This document shows positions 15,979-43,581 of a DNA stretch of 64,000 bases, in pieces. The DNA is from a virus. Taxonomy: Duplodnaviria > Heunggongvirae > Uroviricota > Caudoviricetes. Where the stretch lies: the IMG/VR virus record IMGVR_UViG_3300036768_001066. One strand, given 5' to 3'. Position numbers and translations under genes: made by a program. The notes beneath the pieces are model-generated. The model did not search any database, was not told where the DNA came from, and saw only the letters and a program-made list of their open reading frames with translations. Each line of letters opens with the position of its first letter. Positions within the stretch are counted from its first letter, which is position 1.

Positions 15979-18900
15979 TCAACTCATGAGCCCCGACAAG
16001 AAGTCTGAGTCGTAACTTTTCTGCGGCTCATCCCTCGTACTCGTCAGCTTGTTTGTGATAAGCGTCCTGTACTTCTCATCGAGTCCATCGTATATATTCT
16101 CCACAATCTCGTAATACTGGTCCGAAGAGAAAAAAGGTACGAGATTTACCATGGACATAGCAATGTCGTCATGCCCTATCTGGCTCGAATACGAGCCTTT
16201 CTTGTCCAATCCGAAAGACATCAGCTCGTTGAACGTGTTCTTCTCGCAAGGTATAATCCTTCCGGATCTCACCAAGCGCCTGAATTCCATGCAGTACTCG
16301 TACTTGTTCTTAGGGTTCAGCTTGATGCCAGGGAGCATCCTCTTGGCATTCTCCGAGTGCTTGGTGTGTATGAACATGTCCTCGTAGAACTTGGTGTGGT
16401 TGCTCATGCGCTCGTACAGGAGGTTGCCCTTGAAGTCCATCTCGAGCACTATCTTGACCGCGTCCTCTCCAAACACGTCGTACAGAAGAGTCTCCACAAT
16501 AGGCTGCAGGTCCTCTACGCCGGCCTTATTAGACCTGAACATTCCCACCTGGAGCAAAGACATGAAGTCGCCCTCATCATTTGCGGTGAGCTGCTGCTCT
16601 ATCATCTTCTCCGGCATCGGCACAAGCTTAAAGATGTTCAGTATGGTGTAGTCACCTCCCCCACCTCCGGCCGTATCTATTGTGAAAACGAACCTGTCCG
16701 TATCCTTTATCGTATCAAGATTGAACTTGGGGTGCCACTTGAGGTGCTCGTAGTTGATCTCCTTGTTGTGCAAATCGGTTATCTCGTGCCACACGAATTC
16801 TGTGGTGAGTCTCTTGACCTGACCAAGCGTCTTGTGGTCCAATAATAATTTGGATGACGCGAGGAACTGACAGTTGTGTACCGCACGACCCTCCACGAAA
16901 TAAGAGTTGTCCACCTCGACCTCCAGATTGTAAACCGTGCCGAAATATGGGTATTTTTTCGCAGCTTTGACCTGTCCGGACACGCTTAGTTTGTGGCACC
17001 TTATCCTGCTCTTCTTGTTATCGTTATTAGACGTGGCTTTGTTTATCCGCAATTGGTGGGCTTCATTGGCGAAAACATCTCGGCCGACCACTTTACGGAT
17101 GCCGGATTTATTACCAAACGTTATACTGCATGTATATCCGAGAGCATGCGATAACAATTGCAACTGATAAGCCAACGTGTATGAAACTGTAGTATACCCG
17201 TCGTGCGTCTTGTTCTTATAAAAACCGTCGCCATTTATCAATGTATCATACACGATTTGTTCGTGCCCGGCTATTAACTCAAAGGGTATTTTTTTTTCTA
17301 AAGCTCCAGCTCCGCAGTTTTTAACAAAAAACTCGACAAGGTCGGCATCGTTAACAATTATTTCGGTAGAATTATCCCTGACACGTACATGCACCTTACC
17401 CGAAGATACAGTAGCAAGGCACCGTAGGATCTGGTCCCTGAACCCCGTCTCTTCTTTATGTAAGCCGAAACTGACCTGCGATTTGCGGGCGCATCCCTTG
17501 GCTATGTACCAACCAATCAACAACGCCATATCTTCCGATATGACCTTGGATTTTTTTAGAAGTGGCTTGGCATAACACAGCCAATCTTCTGTACGTATCG
17601 AATCCGCGGAGGTCCACTCGTATCTACGACCTTCCAATACCGTCCGTATCGGGTGTTCGTTTGTGCATTTTATAGGCCGGTTATTCCCGTACGAATAGAG
17701 CTCGTGCAGTTCCCCGTCATACACGCGCTCCGACACCACCTTGACTTTATGGTAGCGATTTGAATGTGTGAGGACTAAATCGCCGGGGTGTATGTCTCTA
17801 ATTGGTTTCACTCCATCGATTGTAGTAACCAAGCTATCACCTGTAAAACATCCATATTCCTGATTGAAGTCCTCCTCCGAACCGAGGTTGCCTATCTCAC
17901 GCCTCATCCACGCCTCATCCCTTCCGGGCACCTGCCACCAGTCTATTCGTATAGGCTTGAACTCGTTCTTGCCCTCGAGCGCGGCGGTGTATATGTCGTA
18001 GAACTTATTCATACCGTTCGGCGTGGACGTTATGACCACCCTTGATATGTTAGACGACGAGAGCGTCGGGTATACGGACCGCCAGAACGGGTCTATGAAG
18101 TTCTGGTGTATGTGAGCAAACTCATCACAGTACAGGAAGTGAATGGCGAAACCGATGGCCGCTGTCTTGGTAGTGTTACGTCCAAAGAGCCTGCACCCAT
18201 TATCGAACTTCATGGTCATCTGGTTGTTCAGTATGATACCAGGCTTCAGGAAAAACGGAAGGTTCTGCAGTATGACCTTTATTTTATCTATGATCTCTAT
18301 GGTGGTAGCTCCCGTATTGGAGAGCACCATAAGGTTCTTGTCAGAGTGGAACAGCAAGTACCACGTAAGGAATATGCCTGTGGTTATAGTATTGTGGGTC
18401 GGAATAAAATGGTCGGTTAAGTACAGATGGTCTTGGTTGTCAACCATTATGCACTGAACGTCTTCATGCCCGTCTAATTCAACAGAAGCTATCCCGCGCC
18501 TGCGACCCCAATCATAATGCTTATCCCGTATAAGGCGTTGCTTTCTGTCCAGCCTGAATATAGGATATGCGAATCCATTCGGGAGCATCAGTTTCAACCT
18601 GTGTGCAGGCAGGCAAGCCACTCGCGTGCCATCCTCTTTGCGGTATCCAGTTTCCTTGACAGAGCGGCACACAACTATGCCGAGGGATTCACACAATTGT
18701 TGTACATCGTCGGCCAACCTCGGCGACGAAGTGGTAAACACTACATTGGACTTTTTAGTAACGTGTCCATTGGTATCCATCAGACCTTGTAATAATGATA
18801 GCCTCTGCTGTATAGAACCATATAAATATATTTCGGGTATGAATTTATGTTCGGACCTCTTGCCCATTAGCCCTAACGATTTTAGCTCCGTTATGACCTC

Positions 18901-19809
18901 ATTTGTGTATCCTGATTTTTTGGTAACAAAATACGCATATCTGTCATGACCATTTTGTTTAATGCACACATCATGTGCTTCGCATACTTCGTTGTTCAGG
19001 TATTCTACTATTTGTGAGTCGGCGCTGGCCACATTTAGATACTTATTTGACATGCAGCCATCTCCGAGCATAAGTCCGAGAAAATATGGGTCTATATTAA
19101 AATCTGCCTCGGGAAAATTTACCGGTTCAGATGTTCGGACAAACCACTTATAATCCCCGCGCTTTGACAGAAGTCCTTTAGATACTATCTCGCGTAGCTC
19201 CAGTGTTTTTTCGGTTCCATCTACGGTCTCTACTGTCCACAGGTGCTCGCCGCAAGACCTGACAGTGGACCCGTCTGAAAATGTTATATTGTATACATCT
19301 CGCTTACCTTGCGGGAATATGCCAACCACGCTGGTTAGGTTGCCAGAGGCATCGTATATTTTATCGCCTAAAAGAAGGTCGCCGAACCTTGCCTTGCCAG
19401 TAGATTTCCAGACAATTGCGTCCAAGGGCTGAGCTTTTCCCACCTGCCTTGGGGACAGGAACACGCAGAACCTCGAGTCCTGAAAATCCCTGAGTACGTC
19501 CTCCTGGTAGTCACGCAGCTTAATGTTCTTTACGCCTTCATCCGTCATGGAGAAGCAGTAGTTGTTGGCGAAATATATGACGTCCCTCGCGCAGCGCTGT
19601 ATCTCTTCCATCTCCTCCACTGTATACTCGTATACTATATTGGCAGAGCGCCACTCGGGCTTGCCGTCCCAGAATGGAGTAGACTTAACGTCGACACCCG
19701 CGTCTATGTTCTCGAGAAGCTCATTTACCTTCTCGGTGGTCCATACCTGCGACAGGTTCTTGACGTTCTGTTCCTCGTGCTGCTTCTTGTATCTGTTATT
19801 TTCTTCCAT
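15979..19809 (-). CDS. Terminase large subunit (T4 gp17-like) interrupted by two inteins; spliced product ~602 aa
   Basis: Exteins give Walker A SPRQVGK|TITTG, DNGCRLFG, Walker B FLYCDEFAHI, VVITSTPNGMNKFYDIYTAALEGK and a nuclease domain; closely resembles gp17. Confidence 0.9.
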   Translation of the reverse strand: MEENNRYKKQHEEQNVKNLSQVWTTEKVNELLENIDAGVDVKSTPFWDGKPEWRSANIVYEYTVEEMEEIQRCARDVIYFANNYCFSMTDEGVKNIKLRDYQEDVLRDFQDSRFCVFLSPRQVGKAQPLDAIVWKSTGKARFGDLLLGDKIYDASGNLTSVVGIFPQGKRDVYNITFSDGSTVRSCGEHLWTVETVDGTEKTLELREIVSKGLLSKRGDYKWFVRTSEPVNFPEADFNIDPYFLGLMLGDGCMSNKYLNVASADSQIVEYLNNEVCEAHDVCIKQNGHDRYAYFVTKKSGYTNEVITELKSLGLMGKRSEHKFIPEIYLYGSIQQRLSLLQGLMDTNGHVTKKSNVVFTTSSPRLADDVQQLCESLGIVVCRSVKETGYRKEDGTRVACLPAHRLKLMLPNGFAYPIFRLDRKQRLIRDKHYDWGRRRGIASVELDGHEDVQCIMVDNQDHLYLTDHFIPTHNTITTGIFLTWYLLFHSDKNLMVLSNTGATTIEIIDKIKVILQNLPFFLKPGIILNNQMTMKFDNGCRLFGRNTTKTAAIGFAIHFLYCDEFAHIHQNFIDPFWRSVYPTLSSSNISRVVITSTPNGMNKFYDIYTAALEGKNEFKPIRIDWWQVPGRDEAWMRREIGNLGSEEDFNQEYGCFTGDSLVTTIDGVKPIRDIHPGDLVLTHSNRYHKVKVVSERVYDGELHELYSYGNNRPIKCTNEHPIRTVLEGRRYEWTSADSIRTEDWLCYAKPLLKKSKVISEDMALLIGWYIAKGCARKSQVSFGLHKEETGFRDQILRCLATVSSGKVHVRVRDNSTEIIVNDADLVEFFVKNCGAGALEKKIPFELIAGHEQIVYDTLINGDGFYKNKTHDGYTTVSYTLAYQLQLLSHALGYTCSITFGNKSGIRKVVGRDVFANEAHQLRINKATSNNDNKKSRIRCHKLSVSGQVKAAKKYPYFGTVYNLEVEVDNSYFVEGRAVHNCQFLASSKLLLDHKTLGQVKRLTTEFVWHEITDLHNKEINYEHLKWHPKFNLDTIKDTDRFVFTIDTAGGGGGDYTILNIFKLVPMPEKMIEQQLTANDEGDFMSLLQVGMFRSNKAGVEDLQPIVETLLYDVFGEDAVKIVLEMDFKGNLLYERMSNHTKFYEDMFIHTKHSENAKRMLPGIKLNPKNKYEYCMEFRRLVRSGRIIPCEKNTFNELMSFGLDKKGSYSSQIGHDDIAMSMVNLVPFFSSDQYYEIVENIYDGLDEKYRTLITNKLTSTRDEPQKSYDSDFLSGLMS
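16873..17850 (-). other. Intein 2 in terminase (326 aa, LAGLIDADG homing endonuclease domain)
   Basis: Starts CFTGDSLVTTIDG, ends YFVEGRAVHN followed by extein C; LAGLIDADG motifs LLIGWYIAKGC and DTLINGDGFY. Confidence 0.8.
18391..19434 (-). other. Intein 1 in terminase (348 aa, LAGLIDADG homing endonuclease domain); inserted between Walker A Lys and Thr; first residue Ala
   Basis: Starts AQPLDAIVWK, ends HFIPTHN followed by extein T; LAGLIDADG motifs DPYFLGLMLGDGC and LSLLQGLMDTNGHV; removal restores GKT. Confidence 0.8.
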
Positions 19810-20806
19810 TGTACAAGTCTTCCAGTTTCTTTATCCTGGACTTCAGTTCTTTTATCTCGGACTCGAGCCACTCCTTGGTTGGTAGCTCCAGCATAGTGTC
19901 CACATCGTCCTCGGTTATCTTAGCTCCGACCGTGTTCTTTGCCGACCACTGCAGTCCGTACTCCATGTTGAACTTATCCTCCGAGCCGAGGTTGAGTATC
20001 TCATTGCGTTTCCAGGCCTCGTCCCTGCCCGGCACGAGGTTCCACAAATACCTCAGCGGCTTGAACTCGTTGGCCTCGTCTTCAGCTTTTACGAAGAGAT
20101 CGTAAAACCAGTTGTATCCGTTCGGCGTCGATACAACGATCACCCGGCAGTCCTTGCCCTTCGCCATGTGTGGTGCAATGCTCCTGAACACCTTATGCGC
20201 GTCCTTTATGAGTCCAGCCTCATCCATGAATATGAAATTTGTCTGACCACCAATCGGCACATCCGGAGTGGCGCCCTTTGCAACTATTCTGCACCCGTTG
20301 TCGAATTCTATCGACTTTGCGTTCCACGATATTATGCCGGGTTTCATGAAGAACGGCATACTTGCGTAGAGCGCTTTTACCTTGTCTATAAAAGCCGCAG
20401 CCCCCTCGTTATTGACAGTGAGGTACAGGAACATTTTGTCAGAATACGTGGTCGCATAATGCAATGCTATTATCGCCCCGAGCAAGGTCATGCCCATCTG
20501 CCGAGACTTGGCGACCACCACAAACTTATAGAACTCCGTGTGCTGTATGAAGTCTTTCTGGTAGTCGTAGAGTTTTATTTTACCAAGGGTAGGTGATAAT
20601 ACTGGCGAATTGAATCCGAGATATTCGACAAACATCATTGGGTCGCCTATGGAACCCATTATGTCACGCTCTTTATCAGTGAGATGAAAATCGAGATTAG
20701 CCTTTCTTAGGTTTACGTCGCCCCTGTAGTAGGGAGTCTCTTTGAACATGGAGTCATTACCATGCAGTTCCGACCTCAAAAAGTCGATAATTCTTGTGTT
20801 CCACAT
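19796..20806 (-). CDS. Intein-free paralog of the terminase ATPase domain (336 aa, no nuclease domain)
   Basis: AKSRQMGMT Walker A, NGCRIVAKGAT, FIFMDEAG Walker B, VIVVSTPNGYNWFYDLF...NEFKPLRYLWNLVPGRDEAWKRNE parallels the adjacent terminase exteins; overlaps terminase start by 14 nt. Confidence 0.7.
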   Translation of the reverse strand: MWNTRIIDFLRSELHGNDSMFKETPYYRGDVNLRKANLDFHLTDKERDIMGSIGDPMMFVEYLGFNSPVLSPTLGKIKLYDYQKDFIQHTEFYKFVVVAKSRQMGMTLLGAIIALHYATTYSDKMFLYLTVNNEGAAAFIDKVKALYASMPFFMKPGIISWNAKSIEFDNGCRIVAKGATPDVPIGGQTNFIFMDEAGLIKDAHKVFRSIAPHMAKGKDCRVIVVSTPNGYNWFYDLFVKAEDEANEFKPLRYLWNLVPGRDEAWKRNEILNLGSEDKFNMEYGLQWSAKNTVGAKITEDDVDTMLELPTKEWLESEIKELKSRIKKLEDLYNGRK

Positions 20807-20836
20807 GAACTATATATCGTCCAGAAATTATTTTTC

Positions 20837-26776: not shown

Positions 26777-27088
26777 TTAGAACAACGTCGCAGGTAAACC
26801 TTTTTCGAGTTTATCCACGTATTTTTTTAAAATATCCCCATGACAAGCCTTGGGTTTGCACCAGCACACCAGGGTCTTTCCCTTCAGTTCGTGCAGGGAT
26901 TCCATCAGCGAGGGATTCGATAATAGGTACTTCTCGTACTTCTCGAGCGCTTCCTTCCTTGACGCAACCCTGAACTCGGCGAGCGTTCCCTCCCTGTGCG
27001 AATACGGGTTGCCAAATTTTGTAGGTCTCCCGATATACACAAAATTTGATTCGTCACCTTTATCTTTTATATTTATTACTTTACACAT
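26777..27088 (-). CDS. DUF4326-like protein
   Basis: VYIGRPTKFGNPY ... CWCKPKACHGDIL resembles the DUF4326 signature. Confidence 0.5.
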   Translation of the reverse strand: MCKVINIKDKGDESNFVYIGRPTKFGNPYSHREGTLAEFRVASRKEALEKYEKYLLSNPSLMESLHELKGKTLVCWCKPKACHGDILKKYVDKLEKGLPATLF

Positions 27089-27112: not shown

Positions 27113-28192
27113 TTACGAAAATTCTTCGCCTGTCTCCTTGTATTTCGGGTTAATCACCTTAACTTTCAGCCATGTCCCGTCCTTGGCCCTGCGCACCTCG
27201 TAAGGAGTTATTACAATGCCCTCCTTAATGTGCAGCTCCTGGCCGGACACCTTCTCGTTACCGAGCGCAAGCTTCTTGAGCTCCGGCACGTTCTCGTAAG
27301 GTCCGTCGTACAGAACAGGAACCCAATTCTTTCTGAAGTACTCCGGAAGCTGATCGTAAGGATATGTCTTTCCGTTTATCGTCACACCGAATATCTTCAT
27401 AGTCGGGTTGACGAAACCATACTTCATGGCCTGACAAGGAATACCCTCACCGAACACCTGCACCACCATCTCATCGCCGGAGCTGAGCCCGGCGAGGGCG
27501 GACAGATTGGGCAGCAAGTCCAGTATGTTGGAGAATAACCCTATATCGTTAACCGCCATCCAGTAGAAGTTGGTATCGCTCTCCACAAGGCACAAGCCCT
27601 CGGCGTTGTAGTTCTTGGTAGACACCCACTTTGCCTTAACCTGGTTGTCGTTGTGCACAGAGATGTATGCCACGAGCTGCGACCCGTGCAGCTTCTCCGT
27701 TATCACGACACGCTCCCCGTCCACGAAGTCAGCAGCGTAAACACCGAACTGTTCGACGTCGTGCTTTATCGAGAAGTTGTCGTACTCGATAGGAACCGCC
27801 ACGCCCTCCATCTCGGAAGGAACCCTCGGCACGTACTTGGTTATACCAAGAATCTCCGACAGGTCCTCGTCGTTAGGCAGCTCGCTTATGTGCTTACCGC
27901 ACTGCGCGAACACAAGCTCGTTAGGTATGATGATACCACAAGATAGCTCACCTCTCAAACGAATAGAACCAACCCTGTTCTTATCAGGACCGTGCAGGTA
28001 GTTCTTGTACTCCTTCTCAAGCTCACCGTTCAGGATGGACTTCTCGGGAGCGAATACCACGTCCTCACCACCGTTGTACAGTCCCTTCTGCACAACTACC
28101 TGGTATGTGCCAATCTTTCCGATTTGCAGTTTCGCCGCATCCGGGTGATCGAACACCTCAATCTTTGTCTTTATTACTTTCCAATTGCTCAT
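27113..28192 (-). CDS. ATP-dependent RNA ligase (Rnl2-like nucleotidyltransferase) with N-terminal extension
   Basis: Motif I VITEKLHGSQLV (KxHG, compare T4 Rnl2 EKIHGTNFS). Confidence 0.55.
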   Translation of the reverse strand: MSNWKVIKTKIEVFDHPDAAKLQIGKIGTYQVVVQKGLYNGGEDVVFAPEKSILNGELEKEYKNYLHGPDKNRVGSIRLRGELSCGIIIPNELVFAQCGKHISELPNDEDLSEILGITKYVPRVPSEMEGVAVPIEYDNFSIKHDVEQFGVYAADFVDGERVVITEKLHGSQLVAYISVHNDNQVKAKWVSTKNYNAEGLCLVESDTNFYWMAVNDIGLFSNILDLLPNLSALAGLSSGDEMVVQVFGEGIPCQAMKYGFVNPTMKIFGVTINGKTYPYDQLPEYFRKNWVPVLYDGPYENVPELKKLALGNEKVSGQELHIKEGIVITPYEVRRAKDGTWLKVKVINPKYKETGEEFS

Positions 28193-28424
28193 TGTTTACC
28201 TCCTTTTTAATATTGTAAATACCGTATTCTTTTTTCTCAACTTCAAATTCTGCCCGGCACCAATCGCAGCAAAGCTCACCCTTGTGTTCCTTTTCGTACT
28301 CCTCGTAAAAGAAATCGTCGTACTCGATGTTGTGTCCTCCACAACTCGGGCAGTCCCACTCGGCAGTCCCGAGCGCGCACTCCGGCAGGTCGCAGTGCTG
28401 TATGTAAACCATCTCTATATCCAT
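28158..28424 (-). CDS. Small zinc-ribbon protein (88 aa)
   Basis: CDLPEC...CPSCGG...CCDWC cysteine pairs. Confidence 0.45.
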   Translation of the reverse strand: MDIEMVYIQHCDLPECALGTAEWDCPSCGGHNIEYDDFFYEEYEKEHKGELCCDWCRAEFEVEKKEYGIYNIKKEVNNEQLESNKDKD

Positions 28425-28431
28425 AATACTT

Positions 28432-28848
28432 TTACACGTGGAGACCTCCGATGTTCCCCTTATACAGGTCCTTCATCGTAATCCGTTTCCCTGTGACGTG
28501 GTCGATGACGTAGCCGTCCTGGTCCCGGTAGGTCCTGCGCTTGTCGTTGCGCTCTCCGGTGCCTATCTGCGAGTTGCGGATGCCCTGGATCTTGCGGCCC
28601 TCCCCGTTGTCGTGGATGGCCCGCAGCTTGTCCTCCAGGCGTTCCCAGGCCGCGGCCTCGTTCTTCTCGCGCGTCCTGTGCTCCTCCGACCTGACCTGCA
28701 TGCTGGACGGAATATGCGTGAGCACGACGCAAGTCTCGACCTTGTTCACCTTTTGCCCGCCCTTGCCGCCAGACCTGCAGTACTTGCGGTCGACGTCGTT
28801 GCGGTTTAGCACGAAGTTTTGTTGTGGTTTATCGTCCATGACTGCCAC
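28432..28848 (-). CDS. Release-factor-like GGQ-domain protein (ArfB/RF-family peptidyl-tRNA hydrolase)
   Basis: SGGKGGQKVNKVETCVVLTHIP GGQ motif; C-terminal RTYRDQDGYVIDHVTGKRI like RF1/RF2 RTYNF..RVTDHR. Confidence 0.65.
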   Translation of the reverse strand: MAVMDDKPQQNFVLNRNDVDRKYCRSGGKGGQKVNKVETCVVLTHIPSSMQVRSEEHRTREKNEAAAWERLEDKLRAIHDNGEGRKIQGIRNSQIGTGERNDKRRTYRDQDGYVIDHVTGKRITMKDLYKGNIGGLHV

Positions 28849-29181
28849 CGTGACGATGCTCGTCTGGACCCTGCCTCTCTTCTCCGTAGGGGGTATTCGA
28901 GTCCAACGGTGAGAGCCAGATGGCGGCTTTGCGATAAATAGACGTCATTTCTTCTACAAGAAGTTTTGCATCATCTCTACCGGCCGCCGCACGTATCTCA
29001 AGAACTACCGATTCTTTTTTCATGGCTTTTTGTTTTTGTTATTCAATCACGCTGCCACTCGGCAGCACTGTTATCTGCATTTCTATACCGAGCTCACCCT
29101 GGTCGGTGACGAAGAACCGATCCTCCGTCTCAATCTTTATTATCTCCAGCTCCTTGAACTCCATACCGTAATAATTTTTGG

Positions 29182-29254
29182 AGCCGATGACAGGATTCGA
29201 ACCTGCGACTTTCGGTTTACGATACCGACGTTCTACCAGCTGAACTACATCGGC
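29182..29254 (-). tRNA. tRNA-Thr (anticodon CGT)
   Basis: Canonical cloverleaf: GCCGATG/CATCGGC acceptor, TTCGAAT T-loop, loop ATCGTAA. Confidence 0.7.
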
Positions 29255-30446: not shown

Positions 30447-30701
30447 TTCGGCATCCCAAGCACATTTCCTCCGTGTCCAAAGGTTACGCTTTCAATTTTC
30501 CCTAATTTCTTTTCCATTGTCATTTAGTTTTTAAATTATAAATTCAGAAGCCTTCCCTTCTGTTGTTTTTACTTACTGACAGTAGCTCTCGTAGCGGGGC
30601 AATACCTGAGAATCCTATTAAAAACATATTTTTTCCTTTTTAGTTTTAGTTATCTGTAATCAAACAGTTACTGGCAATATACAAAATTTAGAACTAACTT
30701 G

Positions 30702-30784
30702 TAGCGCTGGCCGGACTCGAACCGGCGATGCGTTTCCGCGCCTCCTTATGAGGGAGGTCCAATACCATCTCTGGTCACAGCGCT
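30702..30784 (-). tRNA. tRNA-like, anticodon CAT, long variable arm, possible 8-bp acceptor
   Basis: Stem CCTCC/GGAGG, loop CTCATAA; variable CGCGGAAACGCATC; T-arm GCCGG TTCGAGT CCGGC. Confidence 0.45.
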
Positions 30785-31041
30785 AAGTCTTCCCTCACAA
30801 TTCTCTCGATCAGGTCAACGTCCAGCTCCTTGAGCACGGTCTCGTTGCCGTTCTCGTCAGTGGTCTTCGTCCTGCGCCAGATGCGGTCGCCGAGTTTCTG
30901 CCTGGTGACTATCCGGTACTGAGAGTGCGGTTCCGCCGGGAAGAGCGTAACACACAGAGAGCCGAGGCGAGTGTAGTGCACCCAGATCCTCCTGAAATTC
31001 ACGAGCCGCTCTCTGAGCTCGCGTTCTACGTTACATTCCAT
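30775..31041 (-). CDS. Hypothetical protein (88 aa) between tRNA genes
   Basis: ORF track. Confidence 0.35.
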   Translation of the reverse strand: MECNVERELRERLVNFRRIWVHYTRLGSLCVTLFPAEPHSQYRIVTRQKLGDRIWRRTKTTDENGNETVLKELDVDLIERIVREDLAL

Positions 31042-31054
31042 CGTTCATACATTT

Positions 31055-31145
31055 TGGTTGCCCCGGTGGGATTCGAACCCACGTTGGAAGTTACCTTCTC
31101 CGGATTAAGAGTCCGGTACTTTCGGCCAGCTAAGCGAACGGGGCA
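31055..31145 (-). tRNA. tRNA-like, anticodon CTT by loop CTCTTAA, long variable arm, CCA encoded
   Basis: Acceptor TGCCCCG/CGGGGCA, T-arm GTGGG TTCGAAT CCCAC, variable AGAAGGTAACTTCCAAC. Confidence 0.45.
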
Positions 31146-31157
31146 GTTTAAATTTTG

Positions 31158-31245
31158 TGCGCCCGGCAGGATTCGAACCTGCGATGGTGGTTACCCCACT
31201 CCACATTAAAAGTGTGGTGCTCTCGGCCAACTGAGCAACAGACGC
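31158..31245 (-). tRNA. tRNA-like, anticodon TTT, long variable arm (88 nt)
   Basis: D-arm GCTCAGTTGGCCGAGAGC, stem CCACA/TGTGG, loop CTTTTAA, variable AGTGGGGTAACCACCATC, T-arm GCAGG TTCGAAT CCTGC. Confidence 0.5.
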
Positions 31246-31269
31246 AAAATTTTACTTCGTTCTTATTTG

Positions 31270-31342
31270 TGCGCCCGTCTGGAGTCGAACCAGACCTGAA
31301 TGGTTAAAAGCCATTTGCCTACAACCGGTTTGCTACGAGCGC
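31270..31342 (-). tRNA. tRNA-Lys (anticodon TTT), 73 nt, weak D-stem
   Basis: Stem AATGG/CCATT, loop CTTTTAA, T-arm TCTGG TTCGACT CCAGA. Confidence 0.55.
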
Positions 31343-31491
31343 ATGATTGATGCCTCGCAGTCAGCAAGGCGTTACCGTTTATATTTTCGTTTCTGCTTCA
31401 TTTTCGTTTCTTAAATTTTTTGGCTCCCATGATTAACGACCTTTGGGTATTAGTATCCGAAACGGTCATGCGGATCTGCCATTATTTTTTG

Positions 31492-31573
31492 AGCCTGAGG
31501 AGGGATTCGAACCCCCGTTGTTTGAGTTCCTGCTTACAAGGCAGGCGCAGTCGACCACTGATGCCACTCAGGC
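31492..31573 (-). tRNA. tRNA-Thr (anticodon TGT) with extended 12-nt variable region
   Basis: Acceptor GCCTGAG/CTCAGGC, stem CCTGC/GCAGG, loop CTTGTAA. Confidence 0.55.
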
Positions 31574-31761
31574 AATTTACATTCTTCTCTTAATGCCCGT
31601 ATGCTCAAGATAAGTTGTTATCGAGAACTGTACAGACGGTTTAAATTTTCCGCCCATTATCTTGCAATAATAATCGGACATAGCGTTCAATTTATATTCG
31701 ACAGGTTTATCTATCTCGTATAGTTCGACCTGCCTCGTTTTTATCTCTCTTGTCTTCATCG

Positions 31762-31834
31762 AGCTACCGGCGGGGATCGAACCCGCGACCTCGTCCTTAC
31801 CAAGGACGTGTTCCACCGACTGAACTACAGCAGC
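31762..31834 (-). tRNA. tRNA-Thr (anticodon GGT)
   Basis: D-arm GTTCAGTCGGTGGAAC, stem CGTCC/GGACG, loop TTGGTAA, T-arm GCGGG TTCGATC CCCGC. Confidence 0.65.
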
Positions 31835-31924
31835 ATAATGAACAGGTGAAATATCGATGCAGTGTGAGATTCTGCTTCTTCTTTCATAGGACGATTGGCA
31901 TAACCCCAATCATCTTGTTCACTG

Positions 31925-31998
31925 AGCATGTAGTCGGGATCGAACCGACTCTGTTCCAGCTTGGAAGGCTGGCGCACCACCACTTATGCGTTACATGC
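31925..31998 (-). tRNA. tRNA-Gly (anticodon TCC)
   Basis: Acceptor GCATGTA/TACATGC, stem CCAGC/GCTGG, loop CTTCCAA. Confidence 0.6.
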
Positions 31999-32091
31999 AA
32001 AATACGTTCTCTCCACTTGCTACCTCCAACTGGTCCCAGGTTCAGCGGTTAAGAGTCAGGTACATCTCATAGTCACCCAGAGAGAACGTGG

Positions 32092-32178
32092 AGCGGGTAG
32101 TGAGATTCGAACTCACGATCTGACCTTATCTGACCAGCTTGGAAGGCTGGTGCGATGGACCAACTACGCGACACCCGC
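32092..32178 (-). tRNA. tRNA-like, anticodon TCC, long variable arm; anticodon arm identical to the canonical tRNA-Gly(TCC) next to it
   Basis: CCAGCCTTCCAAGCTGG followed by TCAGATAAGGTCAGATC, then T-arm GTGAG TTCGAAT CTCAC. Confidence 0.45.
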
Positions 32179-32264
32179 AAATATTTTAGACAGGGACTGA
32201 AGGGAATTTTCACCTTGGCTCCGGCGGCCTTTCGGTCTCACGATCTACATCAGTTTGTCCTTTG

Positions 32265-32336
32265 TAACGGAGGGCAGAATCGAACTGCCGGGGTCCAGGC
32301 TTATGAGACCAGAAGGTTACCAACAACCTCTCCGCA
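32265..32336 (-). tRNA. tRNA-like, probable anticodon CAT, irregular acceptor and anticodon stems
   Basis: T-arm GGCAG TTCGATT CTGCC; loop CTCATAA with a T-T mismatch in the stem. Confidence 0.35.
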
Positions 32337-32529
32337 ATGTTCAGCGGTTCTCCTGGACCCTATTACCAGGATTTACTTTGGATTGTCGAGTTCTAAATTT
32401 CTCAATAATGAACGACGACAACAGAACCACTTAATGTGGCGGACAAGTGAGATAATGACCTTGTGCGAGATTCGAGGTCCTCTCTCATTGGGTGATCGGT
32501 ATCGCAACCCCGACCATTCTTGTCCACTG

Positions 32530-32602
32530 AGCGGGGGACGGGATTCGAACCCGCGACCTTCACCTTGGCAAGGTGACGCTCTACCAACTGAGCTACTCCC
32601 GC
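32530..32602 (-). tRNA. tRNA-Gly (anticodon GCC)
   Basis: GCGGGAG TA GCTCAGTTGGTAGAGC, stem TCACC/GGTGA, loop TTGCCAA. Confidence 0.7.
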
Positions 32603-32716
32603 ATGAACACCGATTCCTGTCTTCCTCACTGCCTCGGTGTACCACAGCAGTGTCATTCCCTAATTGGAGCCGAGGGGCAGCCCGCCGGCTGTGCGTTCCC
32701 TTTCAACTCGGCATTT

Positions 32717-32797
32717 GTGCGGGAGGAGGACTCGAACCTCCGAGGCTTGCGCATAGGATCATGAGTCCTACCTGATACCATCTTCAGTCACCCCGCA
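32717..32797 (-). tRNA. tRNA-like, anticodon CAT, extended 12-nt variable region
   Basis: Stem TAGGA/TCCTA, loop CTCATGA, T-arm GGAGG TTCGAGT CCTCC. Confidence 0.45.
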
Positions 32798-32821
32798 ATA
32801 TTTTGGTCGCCAGACCTTTTG

Positions 32822-32893
32822 TGCACCCGGAAGGACTCGAACCTTCAACCTACCGGTTAAGAGCCGGGAGCTCTACCATTGAGCTACGGATGC
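32822..32893 (-). tRNA. tRNA-Lys (anticodon CTT)
   Basis: GCATCCG TA GCTCAATGGTAGAGC, loop CTCTTAA, T-arm GAAGG TTCGAGT CCTTC. Confidence 0.6.
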
Positions 32894-38305: not shown

Positions 38306-39994
38306 TTAGGCTGTTATCTCAACATCCATCTCGATTTCAGCGTTCTTACGAACCTGGTCGAACGTGTACTCCACAAGGATCTCTCCATCTCGGAATACCG
38401 GCACCAATACGTCCTCGTATTTGTCGAAATCTGGATCTGTTGACTGCACCGTCTTGAATGCTTCCCACGCCTGCATTCCAGGCTTTCTTTCGGCACGAAC
38501 AAGTTTACAGTATCCAGTTTTTGATTTCTTAACCGCATCGGTCACAGGGTTCTTCTCGATGTTCACGCCGACTCCGTTGATAATTACATGCGTAGCCTTG
38601 ATAGCGTACTTCTGCTCGTCGCGGTCGTGTGCCTGTAGATATTTTCCACCGGAACCGAACACCAGATTCATGATGTCGATTTTCACGGAGATCATACGTT
38701 CGTAAAGTAGGGACATCAATTTGTAATTCACACCATCTCCTTGGAGCACACCGATCTGAGGGTGGAATACTCTGAAACCTTTCGAGTTTGTGGTGAATCC
38801 AAAGTGGTCGAACAGGATATTGAAAATTCCTTTATCCACGAGGCTCTGCGCTTCGACAATGTCAATGTCCATGTGTTTAGACACCTTCATCACAACTTGC
38901 GACACGTAGTGCGGGTCCACCTTTGAATCGTTGAACAATCCGAATAGAACCATCTCGGCATCTCCGGAATCAGGACGTACGACAATCTTGATAGGGATAC
39001 CATGATTATTGGTCCATCCGATGAACTCGTCTTTAAGGCCAGGAAGGATTCTGTGACACACGTTATAGATATTCTTGGTATCCGATACGAGAGATAAGAT
39101 GATCACCCCACTTGCAGGGTTGGCATTTAGCACCAATGGGTCGGTCTTGACCTTGTTGATGATGGTGCGGTATCCCTCAGGATCGCTCGCATCGCCATCG
39201 TATGAACAATGCACTGAGTGTTCCGACGCGATAACAGAGAAACCGGCCATTGGACAACCGTAGTACTTCTCGGCAAGAACACAAGCACCTAATGTGTCGG
39301 TTCCTTTGAACGAGATAAGCGCCGCGGTACCAAGGATGCGAGCGGACTCTTCCGAGCTAACTCCACGGTATCCGAAGTCGTGGTGCATGAAGTCGATCAG
39401 CCACTGTGGCGCGTCGGACGACAATGCGTGATACTTAACGATAAGTTCCTTCACCAGGCGAGCGTACGTCGCGACAGTGTTAGGCGCCCACAATTTCATC
39501 AACGTGGTTTCGCTGATGTTGGTGAGTGGTGAGCACTTCTTATCTGTATTGCGGATAGTCATGATGATGTTCTTCACCGCAACCGGAGTACCTTCCGGAA
39601 CTGCCTTGATCTCGAGAGGTAATCTTCCTCCGTGATTCTCCCAGATGTGGTACCACATCTTGTCGTTAAAACAGTCGAAGCCGAAGTGTGCGATGTTCTT
39701 CTTACGAGCTTCCTCGATTTTTGCTGGGGTAATGCGAACACCGGCAAAGTATTTTTTCAGATAGTACTGCAATAAGCAAAGGATAGTGTAAGGCATATCC
39801 CCGCCGCGCGACTCAAGACCCGAATAGGTCTCCTCGATTCCATCAGGTACGAGAAGGTGGTGCGTCATTTTGTAACTGTCCGACATGATGATGAAATTGT
39901 CTTCATCTTGTAAATTTTGGATGATGGCTACGAGCTCTGTCACACTCATGTTTTGCAGCTCGGCATCCGTGTAATCGCCATGATGTTTCTTCAT
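38306..39994 (-). CDS. nadV: Nicotinamide phosphoribosyltransferase (NAMPT)
   Basis: DSYKMTHH, LPLEIKAVPEG, HDFGYRGVSS, FKGTDT, VRPDSG, LQGDGV, VFGSGG align with the eukaryotic and KVP40 NAMPT signature. Confidence 0.9.
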   Translation of the reverse strand: MKKHHGDYTDAELQNMSVTELVAIIQNLQDEDNFIIMSDSYKMTHHLLVPDGIEETYSGLESRGGDMPYTILCLLQYYLKKYFAGVRITPAKIEEARKKNIAHFGFDCFNDKMWYHIWENHGGRLPLEIKAVPEGTPVAVKNIIMTIRNTDKKCSPLTNISETTLMKLWAPNTVATYARLVKELIVKYHALSSDAPQWLIDFMHHDFGYRGVSSEESARILGTAALISFKGTDTLGACVLAEKYYGCPMAGFSVIASEHSVHCSYDGDASDPEGYRTIINKVKTDPLVLNANPASGVIILSLVSDTKNIYNVCHRILPGLKDEFIGWTNNHGIPIKIVVRPDSGDAEMVLFGLFNDSKVDPHYVSQVVMKVSKHMDIDIVEAQSLVDKGIFNILFDHFGFTTNSKGFRVFHPQIGVLQGDGVNYKLMSLLYERMISVKIDIMNLVFGSGGKYLQAHDRDEQKYAIKATHVIINGVGVNIEKNPVTDAVKKSKTGYCKLVRAERKPGMQAWEAFKTVQSTDPDFDKYEDVLVPVFRDGEILVEYTFDQVRKNAEIEMDVEITA

Positions 39995-40017
39995 TTTGGT
40001 TTTTATTTAGGTTTATA

Positions 40018-42245: not shown

Positions 42246-43523
42246 TCATTTATCTCTCACTACCCTGTCACATTGCTGCAGCAGTTGGTTAAACTTTATA
42301 GCTTCGCGGCGTCTCTGCTCTTCGCCCATCTCCGGTCCTTCCTTCATACCTTCATCTAACAAAGATTGTCCGGTCACACTGAGTTTGTAAACGCTAAGTG
42401 CCAACGCGTTCGCATTACGGCGCTTCTCCTCTTTGGACATTACCCAATGTAAAAACACGGTAAGATCCGCGTCCGCCAGCTCGAGGCGTTCTCTGCGTTT
42501 AGCTATCGTAAACGCGAACGTATGAAGCTCGTCGGTAGCATGCTCAACATACTTGGCAGCATCGAGCAATAGCTCCACACCGTCCACAAACTTATTCGGT
42601 AATTTTATCTCCTCCTTCAGTTTACGGGTGAGCATCTGTCGGCTTGTATCAGATGCGTGGAACAGCGAAGCTACAAGTACCTCCGGAGTTCTTGTGTTAA
42701 TCCATTGCTCCGGATAGTAATACCCGGGCATGACTTGATAGAGTAGACCATATTCCTGCAACAATGTGAAGTACATCAACGGTGAGTTGAGTTGTTCGAA
42801 CGCCTTGAACATTTCTTCATTTATGCGCTCGCGAACAATAGGCACTGTATTACCATCTTTGTCTGGTCCTTCGAGTACCCGGCATTTCATAATGGCTTCG
42901 GCGGTATCCTCGTGTATCTTCATACCAAAGCGAAGCGCAAATCTGATGGCTCTCAGCACGCGCAATCTATCCTCGTTGAACCGGTCCACCGGGTTGCCTA
43001 CACAGCGCAATACTCTGTTCTCTACGTCTTCAACGCCGCCAACAAGGTCGATTATCTCGCACTTGTCGAGGTCGTAAAACAAAGCATTGATGGTGAAGTC
43101 GCGCCGCAGCACGTTCTCTTCGATTGTTGCGCCGAGCCTTACCTCTGGTTGACGCCCGACGGAGACGTCCTCGCGGAAAGTCGCTATCTCGTATCCCTTT
43201 GGACAGTCCTTGGTATAAACTCGTATCACCCCGAAACTCTTGCCCGTGTAATCCAAGCGGTAGTTGTCTTTGAGAAGTTCGGATATTTTTTCTGGCATGG
43301 CGTCTGTGGCCATGTCGTAGTCCTTGATGTTGGACCCGAGCAGGTGGTCACGGACACATCCCCCAACAACAAAGAGCTGGTGACCAGCGGCAGTCATAAT
43401 TTGGTGGATGTCCTTGATGTCCTGTGGAATATTCATAATGTAAAGATACGAATTTTTTATTGATATTGAACCCAGGAGATGCCTGTATCTCTCGATTAGC
43501 TCTTGCTCTTTATCTACATTCAA
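42246..43523 (-). CDS. cca: tRNA nucleotidyltransferase (CCA-adding enzyme)
   Basis: LFVVGGCVRDHLLG ... DYDMAT ... EIATFRED ... RRDFTINAL polymerase-beta head-domain motifs. Confidence 0.8.
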   Translation of the reverse strand: MNVDKEQELIERYRHLLGSISIKNSYLYIMNIPQDIKDIHQIMTAAGHQLFVVGGCVRDHLLGSNIKDYDMATDAMPEKISELLKDNYRLDYTGKSFGVIRVYTKDCPKGYEIATFREDVSVGRQPEVRLGATIEENVLRRDFTINALFYDLDKCEIIDLVGGVEDVENRVLRCVGNPVDRFNEDRLRVLRAIRFALRFGMKIHEDTAEAIMKCRVLEGPDKDGNTVPIVRERINEEMFKAFEQLNSPLMYFTLLQEYGLLYQVMPGYYYPEQWINTRTPEVLVASLFHASDTSRQMLTRKLKEEIKLPNKFVDGVELLLDAAKYVEHATDELHTFAFTIAKRRERLELADADLTVFLHWVMSKEEKRRNANALALSVYKLSVTGQSLLDEGMKEGPEMGEEQRRREAIKFNQLLQQCDRVVRDK

Positions 43524-43532
43524 ATATAAATG

Positions 43533-43560
43533 AAAAGGGGACCCAAAATCGGGTCCCTTT
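43533..43560 (-). terminator. Rho-independent terminator after lipoprotein gene
   Basis: AAAGGGACCC-GATTTT-GGGTCCCCTTTTCATTT on minus strand. Confidence 0.6.
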
Positions 43561-43581
43561 CCTCAGTGAGGATTTCGTCAA

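Follow-up and report, generated by a model that had tools for sequence, protein, structure and literature searches.

Programmed recoding of the genes of release factors, a textbook case of translational autoregulation, is known only from bacterial prfB and from the eRF1 gene of giant viruses. In prfB, which encodes RF2, a Shine-Dalgarno (SD)-like element and the sequence CUU UGA C mark a +1 frameshift site at about codon 26, in domain 1. The efficiency of this frameshift rises when RF2 is limiting (PMC5009743, PMC12421855). For prfA, the gene of RF1, no programmed frameshift was found in more than 12,000 bacterial genomes, and CTT-TAG never occurred among 8,164 prfB motifs (Prince et al.). The class-I release factor gene of Mimivirus and Megavirus contains internal stops which are passed by read-through and frameshifting, and this was read as autoregulation of the bacterial style (Jeudy et al., 2012, PMC3521657). 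Read-through of an in-frame stop in RF2 or RF1 genes was described as unknown by Atkins et al. (2016), with the eRF1-type gene of giant viruses as the only viral precedent. Huge phages encode “release factor 1 and 2” (PMC7162821), and in Jade phages, whose genomes are TGA-recoded throughout, RF1 is written in the standard code and located in a code-change operon (Borges et al., bioRxiv 10.1101/2021.08.26.457843). Here we analyzed a stretch of 64,000 nucleotides (nt) from a virus of the Caudoviricetes (IMG/VR virus record IMGVR_UViG_3300036768_001066), which is referred to as a whole as the window. It encodes a GGQ protein of 138 amino acids (aa), which a first reading of the sequence alone (the sequence-only reading) had taken for a stand-alone, ArfB-like catalytic domain without codon-recognition domains. 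The locus as a whole is likely to be explained best by a damaged copy of a gene from a family whose expression would be gated by recoding. We refer to this family as mini-RF1, a class-I release factor 1 of huge phages which is reduced to domains 2, 3 and 4.

The 138-aa open reading frame (ORF) with its GGQ motif exists at 28432-28848 as had been described; it is encoded on the minus strand, and its sequence includes SGGKGGQKVNKVETCVV and KRRTYRDQDGYVIDHVTGKRITMKDLYKGNIGGLHV (SGGKGGQKVNKVET, KRRTYRDQDGYVIDHVTGKRI). A search with the RF-1 profile (Pfam PF00472), which had been proposed as a check, gave a match to nearly the full profile (positions 4-115 of 116, ORF residues 11-117) with 84.5 bits at a cutoff of 35 (E=6.7e-24). 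This is far beyond chance, and the assignment to a phage-encoded protein of the class-I release factor family was correct. Among the NCBIfam models, RF1 ranked first for the ORF, followed by RF2 and PrfH, with ArfB last. The RF1 match extends to position 331 of 347 and takes in domain 4, whereas ArfB matches the GGQ loop only. Therefore, the tail of the protein, which the sequence-only reading had pointed out, is RF1 domain 4 and not a basic ArfB tail. The RF1 model NF001859 gave 90 bits for the ORF and 142.8 bits for the merged sequence (cutoffs 400 and 423), and the PrfH model TIGR03072 gave 45.8-48.6 bits in the window at a cutoff of 166.65. The ORF is 92% identical to protein P0001.

The coordinates of the ORF are real but understate the gene, which spans 28432-29023. 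By three-frame translation, the frame of the ORF is open back to 28944 and RF1-like there. Upstream of the GTG start it reads SGSHRWTRIPPTEKRGRVQTSIVTVAV, an RF1 codon-reading loop with a PxT-type tripeptide (PPT at 28885-28893, minus strand), and the segment HRWTRIPPTEKRGRVQTS, encoded at 28849-28920 in the same frame, aligns to HRVQRVPVTETQGRIHTS of T. thermophilus RF1. The codon-reading loop HR.QR...TE..GR.HTS with its PxT is present in the window sequence, upstream of any start codon. A 64-aa ORF (28829-29023, minus strand), whose frame is offset by one base, begins with MKKESVVLEIRAAAGRDDAKLL and carries MKKESVVLEIRAAAGRDD. Its first 34 codons show a weak match to the Pfam family PCRF (profile positions 99-128 of 194), and past codon 34 it continues out of frame to a TAA at 28829-28831. 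When the reconstructed protein of the close relative L001 was used as tblastn query, residues 1-35 matched 29023-28919 with 80% identity and residues 68-228 matched 28920-28438 with 91% identity. Contrary to the sequence-only reading, domain 2 is found upstream, as HRWTRIPPTEKRGRVQTS in the same frame and as MKKESVVLEIRAAAGRDD in the +1-offset ORF. Domain 1 is missing in the window gene as in all relatives. With high confidence, the 138-aa ORF is not a whole gene; it makes up the 3' two-thirds of an RF1 gene that has been damaged. The coordinates of all parts are given in Table 1.

A protein search for the family revealed 681 relatives, whose lengths fall into classes of about 135, 155, 175 and 226-228 aa. 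In IMG/VR, 527 relatives were identified, many of them on contigs of 200-500 kb; the 74 loci used in the following are the best 80 of these 527 matches, kept as distinct. The closest relatives are L001-3 (92% identity in the 3' part), L004/5 and L006, in which the gene occupies one frame of about 230 codons. Proteins of the full-length class start with MKKE..LEIRA.EGG.D.KLL and continue with G.HRW.RIPPTEKRGR.QTS, followed by GGQ and KRRTYR..D..V.DH. The tripeptide PPT is present in 66 of 74 relatives. RF1 was the best NCBIfam model for the ORF, the merged sequence and all reconstructed relatives, with typical scores of 178-261 bits for RF1, 96-164 for RF2, 56-101 for PrfH and 25-38 for ArfB. 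The RF1 scores of the relatives cover 171-261 bits, and in every length class RF1 is far ahead of RF2. The RF1 equivalog cutoffs (400, 423) were reached neither by the relatives nor by the merged sequence or the ORF. Because the RF1 matches in the window and in all relatives always start at position ~103-113 of the model, domain 1 is absent. The AlphaFold2 (AF2) model of P0066, a naturally uninterrupted family member (predicted local distance difference test 87.3) superimposes on domains 2-4 of ribosome-bound T. thermophilus RF1 with a template modelling (TM) score of 0.93 and a root mean square deviation of 2.1 Å, compared to a TM score of 0.66 for PrfH.

Bacterial RF1 (prfA; NF001859 / TIGR00019) is thus the best match in both sequence and structure, and its domains 2, 3 and 4 are co-linear with mini-RF1. 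Both share the GGQ loop, the PPT tripeptide, GG.D/E at the tip of helix alpha5 and the conserved Thr of HTS/QTS. The family keeps the codon-reading elements of RF1 (EIRA.EGG.D at the alpha5 tip and PPT) together with the GGQ loop, without domain 1. Unlike bacterial RF1, mini-RF1 lacks domain 1, scores 143-261 bits at an equivalog cutoff of 400-423 and shows the signature HRW.R(I/V)PPTE instead of HRVQRVPxTE. In further contrast to bacterial prfA, the gene is interrupted in about 90% of the sampled members, and the window copy is also devoid of strands beta2-beta3. Bacterial genomes contain ordinary full-length RF1 at 29-39% identity and a few interrupted copies of the PPTE type. The latter are probably phage contigs that were binned into metagenome-assembled genomes (MAGs), and the mini-RF1 family is essentially viral. 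RF1 genes with little or no domain 1 were also seen in MAGs of the candidate phyla radiation (Nomurabacteria, Gottesmanbacteria; L102:4001-4669 and L103:4001-4636). Their frames are open over 271 and 234 codons, their motifs belong to the HRVQRIPxTE type, and their origin may be cellular or phage-derived.

In 67 of the 74 relatives, a stretch of 20 codons in domain 2 carries an interruption of the gene. Only seven loci are uninterrupted, 45 contain one or two in-frame stops (64 TGA and 5 TAG in total) and 22 require a +1 frameshift. Three sites (A, B and C) recur for the in-frame stops. Counted upstream from the His of the HRW motif, they lie at a distance of 30/31, 25 and 17 codons, and they correspond to about residues 40/41, 46 and 54 of P0066. 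The closest relatives have two in-frame TGA codons at identical positions (...TKQ(stop)LPGYASL(stop)LTGNG...) at a DNA identity of only 65-80%, and TGA and TAG occur together in one gene in L036 and L046. Published phage genomes of 485-735 kb show the same arrangement, with two TGA codons in LR745206 and LR756501 (735 kb), one TGA in LR756502 and LR756504, and ...RRGL-TGA-C followed by a continuation in the +1 frame in LR745208. The two TGA codons occupy sites B and C in L001 and LR745206, and sites A and C in LR756501. Among the 22 frameshift loci, 15 have CTT-TGA, six CTT-TAG and one is atypical. An SD-like GGAG/GGGG is located three nt upstream in 13 of the 15 CTT-TGA loci, typically as cggaggggt CTT TGA c; examples of the cassette cggaggggtCTTTGAc are L069 and LR745208, and CTT-TAG-C is found in L071. 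After correction of the frameshift, the proteins are co-linear with uninterrupted homologues (...AARRGL-DLSLLDERPG... matches ...ARRHDLDIEIADDRPS...). A deviating member of the frameshift class, L095 (LR745208.1 60474-67119), from a 485-kb phage, has a shortened codon-reading loop (HRVQRTSNGRIHSS) and no PPTE motif.

The base following the in-frame TGA codons (+4) is C in 33 and A in 31 cases, i.e., C or A in 64 of 64, compared to 51% at the genuine TGA terminators of the same loci. Where a Leu codon comes next after the stop, it is of the CTN type 36 times out of 37, compared to a background of 41%. The in-frame TGA codons therefore sit in weak-termination contexts; the direction of this effect is clear, while the nominal P values are inflated by non-independent lineages. 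Uninterrupted homologues often have Trp where the others carry a stop, in agreement with UGA being decoded by tRNA-Trp or by a suppressor. Upstream of the stops, the ratio of nonsynonymous to synonymous substitution rates (dN/dS) is 0.08-0.19 at dS 0.35-2, with a single outlier that is due to a register slip in the ungapped comparison. Since the sequence flanking the stops is under purifying selection, the interrupted genes are not pseudogenes.

A conserved RNA structure was not found downstream of the stops (RNAalifold empty, mean z -0.26). Selenocysteine insertion at the TGA codons was ruled out by this lack of a conserved downstream structure and by the aligned residues, which are Trp, Ser, Arg, Thr and Gln but not Cys. 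A split gene with termination and reinitiation was rejected as well, as the middle piece of the genes with two TGA codons consists of seven residues and only 5 of 69 stops are followed by an ATG. In one sub-lineage (L041, L047, L048, L052 and L058), the stop at site C is located in the loop of a small inverted repeat (GUUAG-cauaUGA-CUAAC), which is not conserved across the family. Where TGA occurs at sites A and C, a tRNA gene with a CUA (amber-suppressor) anticodon was observed near the release factor gene in 11 of 14 loci (L030, L034, L035, L040, L043, L045, L047, L048, L052, L058 and L061; 1-4 kb 3' of the gene). Its position beside an RF1-type gene is puzzling because an RF1-type factor should compete with amber suppression.

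The cassette in 15 of the relatives is of the same type as that of prfB. However, mini-RF1 genes encode an RF1-type factor, so that UGA would not be read by their own product, and the site is located inside domain 2 (about residue 40 or 56 of 228) instead of domain 1. Moreover, six mini-RF1 loci use CTT-TAG. In the window gene itself, a prfB-like CUU-UGA +1 cassette is not present. The factor of Mimivirus and Megavirus is of the eRF1/aRF1 type, belongs to a eukaryotic virus and combines both events in one gene, whereas mini-RF1 is of the bacterial RF1 type, occurs in phages and shows features of either read-through or frameshifting in different lineages at homologous positions. Full-text literature searches revealed no description of recoding in phage RF1-type genes, at an incomplete coverage that makes prior work possible.

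The in-frame TGA codons could also be ordinary sense codons of phages with a recoded genome (code 4), as in the code-switch model of Borges et al. The Trp residues at the stop positions of uninterrupted homologues, the RF1 reported in TGA-recoded Jade phages and two tRNA(UCA) genes in L073 speak for this explanation, and in L048, L064 and L080 code 4 raises the coding density by more than the control does. Coding density, however, is 0.87 in the window under code 11 and 0.75-0.95 in most relative loci, and in most loci the gain under code 4 (TGA as sense) is no larger than that of the control with TAG as sense (code 15). Furthermore, the stops are found at the same three positions across sequences which are only 40-60% identical, TGA and TAG are combined in one gene in L036 and L046, and 22 loci contain CUU-stop frameshift cassettes at the same sites instead. 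The Jade RF1 genes, moreover, are written in the standard code. They resemble mini-RF1 in being phage-encoded and tied to changes in UGA decoding, but the genomes with mini-RF1 are not recoded and here the release factor gene itself carries the stops. Code 4 is therefore an unlikely explanation, and genome-wide recoding of TGA to Trp was rejected for the window and the relatives by the coding-density tests. The sequence-only reading had placed the window in the standard code and seen no link to stop-codon recoding. TGA is indeed a normal stop in the window, and the statement is correct there; it does not hold for the relatives, with their conserved in-frame TGA/TAG codons or prfB-like frameshift sites.

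The window gene differs from its closest relatives by the loss of exactly 98 nt which are present in L001, L004 and L006 (DNA alignment A1, columns 120-217). The deletion falls between ...YRKAA and SGSHRW... and shifts the frame by +1, so that the first 34 codons are left in a different frame. In the AF2 model, the deleted stretch corresponds to residues 35-67 of P0066, i.e., the end of alpha5, beta2, beta3 and the helix 60-64. As a consequence, the beta-sheet of domains 2 and 4 (beta1-beta5), which is complete in the relatives, is incomplete in the window copy. All three proposed gate sites of the family fall inside the deleted 33-codon segment. The missing segment was not found elsewhere in the window by tblastn. 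Thus, the 138-aa ORF only looks stand-alone because the deletion broke the gene. Compared to L001, dN/dS is 0.08 for the N-terminal remnant, 0.17 for the middle segment and 0.10 for the 138-aa ORF. Given these low values, constraint acted on all three parts during most of their divergence, and the deletion is apparently a recent event. In the window, AGR is found in place of the conserved EGG motif. The deletion is unique to the window among 75 loci, and natural intact variants without beta2-beta3 were not found; products of 191-199 aa turned out to be downstream ORFs of the frameshift class. The same junction or lineage was absent from the protein/contig index, IMG/VR and the JGI metagenomes. 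The window copy is most likely, at moderate confidence, a recently inactivated allele which has lost the gate and part of the domain fold. At best its products would be fragmentary, namely an N-terminal peptide of 64 aa and perhaps a piece with domains 3/4, and most likely it makes neither a working codon-specific factor nor an ArfB-like enzyme.

It might be argued that the deletion arose artificially in assembly or sequencing or represents a minor variant, and that the real phage has an intact gene with two TGA codons like L001. The low dN/dS in all segments and the absence of the deletion from the other loci and of its junction and lineage from other collections would agree with that, and the 3-nt microhomology at the junction fits a real deletion and a mis-join alike. 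A precise loss of 98 nt in unique, non-repetitive sequence, on the other hand, is untypical of assemblers, and the substitution of G by R in the EGG motif hints at relaxed constraint. We regard an artefact as quite improbable.

Expression of the window copy as a protein of about 196 aa, by a +1 frameshift near 28921-28935, would result in a shortened factor without beta2-beta3. The N-terminal part agrees in its relative frame (downstream = +1) with the 22 frameshift-class relatives, the remnant has a dN/dS of 0.08 and an AAA-G slip site is found in the overlap. But the junction contains no CTT-stop, in-frame stop or SD-like element, and the 0-frame continues for 30 codons. With the 33 deleted residues, the codon-reading domain loses two core strands and one helix, which no natural intact variant lacks, and the deletion maps cleanly onto an in-frame ancestor with two TGA codons. 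Such a product is very unlikely.

Very unlikely, too, is the proposal of the sequence-only reading, by which the 138-aa ORF would be whole, would be expressed on its own and would encode an ArfB-like GGQ hydrolase for codon-independent ribosome rescue. The role suggested for it during infection, on ribosomes stalled at nuclease-cleaved RNAs, found no support in the analysis. It is true that the ORF is intact, with a GTG/ATG start region, the GGQ motif and a weak GGTGG 5 nt before an internal ATG, and that it shows a dN/dS of 0.10 compared to L001 in a neighborhood of tRNA, RNA ligase and CCA-enzyme genes. Yet a recent deletion explains the low dN/dS equally well, and the ArfB match covers only profile positions 7-42 of 140 with 40.9 bits at a cutoff of 100. 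ArfB (NF006718) and other stand-alone GGQ rescue factors share only the GGQ loop with mini-RF1, which has no linker or basic C-terminal tail. At its C-terminus it aligns to RF1 domain 4, the strands of which depend on the domain-2 sheet that is missing, and a conserved RF1 domain 2 lies upstream in both frames. The 135-aa homologues are artefacts of in-frame TGA codons in full-length genes; the calls of 135-, 155- and 175-aa “release factors” in huge phages are fragments of a single gene of about 228 codons. A function like that of PrfH-RtcB2, in which the factor and the neighboring RNA ligase would jointly rescue ribosomes damaged by nucleases and repair them, is most improbable. In its favor are the architecture without domain 1 but with GGQ shared with the paralogue PrfH (TIGR03072; PDB 9mor), the presence of PrfH among the structural matches and the position of a ligase, which follows 240 nt downstream in the window and adjoins the gene in L029. 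These points are opposed by 46-101 bits at a cutoff of 166.65, a TM score of 0.66 versus 0.93 for RF1, the RF1 codon-reading motifs that mini-RF1 has kept, and a ligase which is ATP-dependent and of the DRB0094 type, not an RtcB partner, and near the gene in only 4 of 74 loci.

For the mini-RF1 family, we propose that the full-length factor would be made only when a ribosome passes the stops, by read-through or +1 frameshifting. Passage would be more frequent when the release factor for the respective stop is limiting, which is RF2 for UGA and an RF1-type factor for UAG; alternatively, it would be raised by the presence of a suppressor tRNA. In this way the phage would add termination capacity for UAA/UAG conditionally. 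The tripeptide of mini-RF1 has P in the first and T in the third position, which we take to specify UAA/UAG according to the “tripeptide anticodon” rule of Ito and Nakamura. Because the product is RF1-type, a UGA gate would sense and report the activity of RF2 and not that of the product, while true autoregulation would result from the less frequent UAG gates. We conclude with moderate confidence that the decoding of stop codons gates the expression. It is well possible, although we lean slightly against it, that mini-RF1 acts as both sensor and actuator of termination capacity, gated by stops inside its own codon-reading domain, and that the 98-nt deletion in the window excised this gate. Most lineages would then rely on the RF2-specific UGA, either by leaky read-through with C or A at +4 or by a convergent prfB-like SD-CUU-UGA +1 frameshift, and a minority on the RF1-specific UAG.

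Several points weigh against the explanation of the locus as a damaged member of a recoding-gated family. Read-through and frameshifting are deduced from sequence conservation and the analogy to prfB. As RF1-type factors do not recognize UGA, what the gate of most members would sense is RF2 or a suppressor and not the factor itself, and such a cross-regulatory logic is without precedent. The 74 loci are phylogenetically related and, therefore, counts and P values overstate their independence. L073 contains two tRNA(UCA) genes (L073:19745-19919), in a tRNA scan of the relatives that covered +/-10 kb. The deletion is uncorroborated in any other assembly. Finally, both the low dN/dS of the out-of-frame N-terminal remnant and the +1 frame offset of the window copy, which is the same as in the frameshift class, leave room for residual expression.

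Table 1. Release factor gene of the window, its parts and further features with their positions in the 64,000-nt window.
Feature	Position	Strand	Remarks
Whole disrupted mini-RF1 gene	28432..29023	(-)	Domains 2-3-4, no domain 1, two reading frames
138-aa ORF	28432..28848	(-)	GTG start; end of beta5, domain 3 with GGQ, long helix, domain-4 strands, TAA stop
GGQ codons ggc ggg caa	28753..28761	(-)	Direct sequence reading; context SGGKGGQKVN
Domain-2 segment SGSHRWTRIPPTEKRGRVQTSIVT	28849..28920	(-)	Strands beta4-beta5; 138-aa frame, upstream of first possible start codon
Deletion junction	28919..28924	(-)	Position ambiguous by 3-nt “ATC” microhomology
N-terminal remnant, codons 1-34 (MKKESVVLEIRAAAGRDDAKLLVEEMTSIYRKAA)	28922..29023	(-)	Strand beta1 and helix alpha5 of domain 2
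tRNA-Thr(CGU)	29179..29254	(-)	155 nt upstream of the ATG of the gene; ARAGORN; Rfam 70.9 bits
88-aa Cys-rich (zinc-ribbon-like) ORF	28158..28424	(-)	Between release factor gene and ligase
ATP-dependent RNA ligase, DRB0094 family	27113..28192	(-)	Downstream of release factor gene; TIGR02306 234.2 bits, cutoff 151
DUF4326 protein	26777..27088	(-)	Pfam E=6.6e-23
Nicotinamide phosphoribosyltransferase (NAMPT)	38306..40006	(-)	
CCA-adding enzyme	42246..43562	(-)	
Terminase large subunit ORF	15979..19830	(-)	1283 aa
Second terminase-like ORF	19796..20809	(-)	337 aa

The window contains the phage genes for terminase, portal and tail sheath as well as those for a CCA-adding enzyme, NAMPT and thymidylate synthase. 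Its portal protein is nearest to those of “huge phages” of 460-735 kb and of Lak phages, and megablast of the region against GenBank phages gave no match. According to ARAGORN, the window encodes 20 tRNA genes, including an array of 12 at 30701-32893. Together with the tRNA-Thr(CGU) gene upstream, this array bears out the statement that the ORF adjoins tRNA genes. Among the relatives, 39 of 74 loci have a tRNA gene within 2 kb of the release factor gene, and 20 of 74 have a CCA-adding enzyme at a distance of up to 10 kb. The DRB0094-type ligase occurs near the gene in 4 of 74 loci only and is not a conserved partner, and the DUF4326 protein is a recurrent neighbor in the closest relatives, 0.5-2.2 kb from the gene in L004, L028 and L029. 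For the 88-aa Cys-rich ORF, neither a Pfam family above threshold nor a homologue in the fetched loci was identified. The release factor gene is located in a loose translation/tRNA island and not in a pair like PrfH-RtcB. The combination of RNA ligase, CCA-adding enzyme, NAMPT and tRNA arrays looks like a gene set for tRNA repair and NAD salvage. An Rfam scan revealed tRNAs only, and scans for promoters and terminators around the release factor gene remained at chance level.

The GC content of the 3' part of the release factor gene (28500-28800) is 0.64-0.67, compared to 0.40-0.50 in the flanking genes and 0.49 in the window. In the array, which is on the minus strand, six tRNAs that are expected to be class I are 81-91 nt long: Lys (31055-31145 and 31157-31245), Gly (32089-32178), Thr (31491-31573) and Met (30701-30784 and 32717-32797). 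Most of them were confirmed by Rfam as tRNAs with insertions; they may carry introns or enlarged variable regions. In the 1283-aa terminase ORF, residues ~659-993 match an unrelated PHROG and ribonucleotide reductase-like profiles and may represent an intein or an inserted domain. The 337-aa terminase-like ORF is located directly upstream and overlaps it by 35 nt.

The results point to a large viral family of RF1-type genes with recoding signals of the kind otherwise known from prfB and the giant-virus eRF1 gene. Compared to the known cases, mini-RF1 shows these signals at new positions and with an unexpected stop specificity, and its CUU-UAG cassettes and in-frame UGA sites were not found in bacterial surveys. 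If the proposed gating is true, mini-RF1 would be the first bacterial-type release factor that is regulated by read-through of an in-frame stop, an arrangement which was hypothesized decades ago. Programmed frameshifting would then be new for an RF1-type gene, and so would be, for release factors in general, the cross-regulation of one class by the activity of the other. The conserved UGA/UAG recoding signals of the family are the part worth following up.

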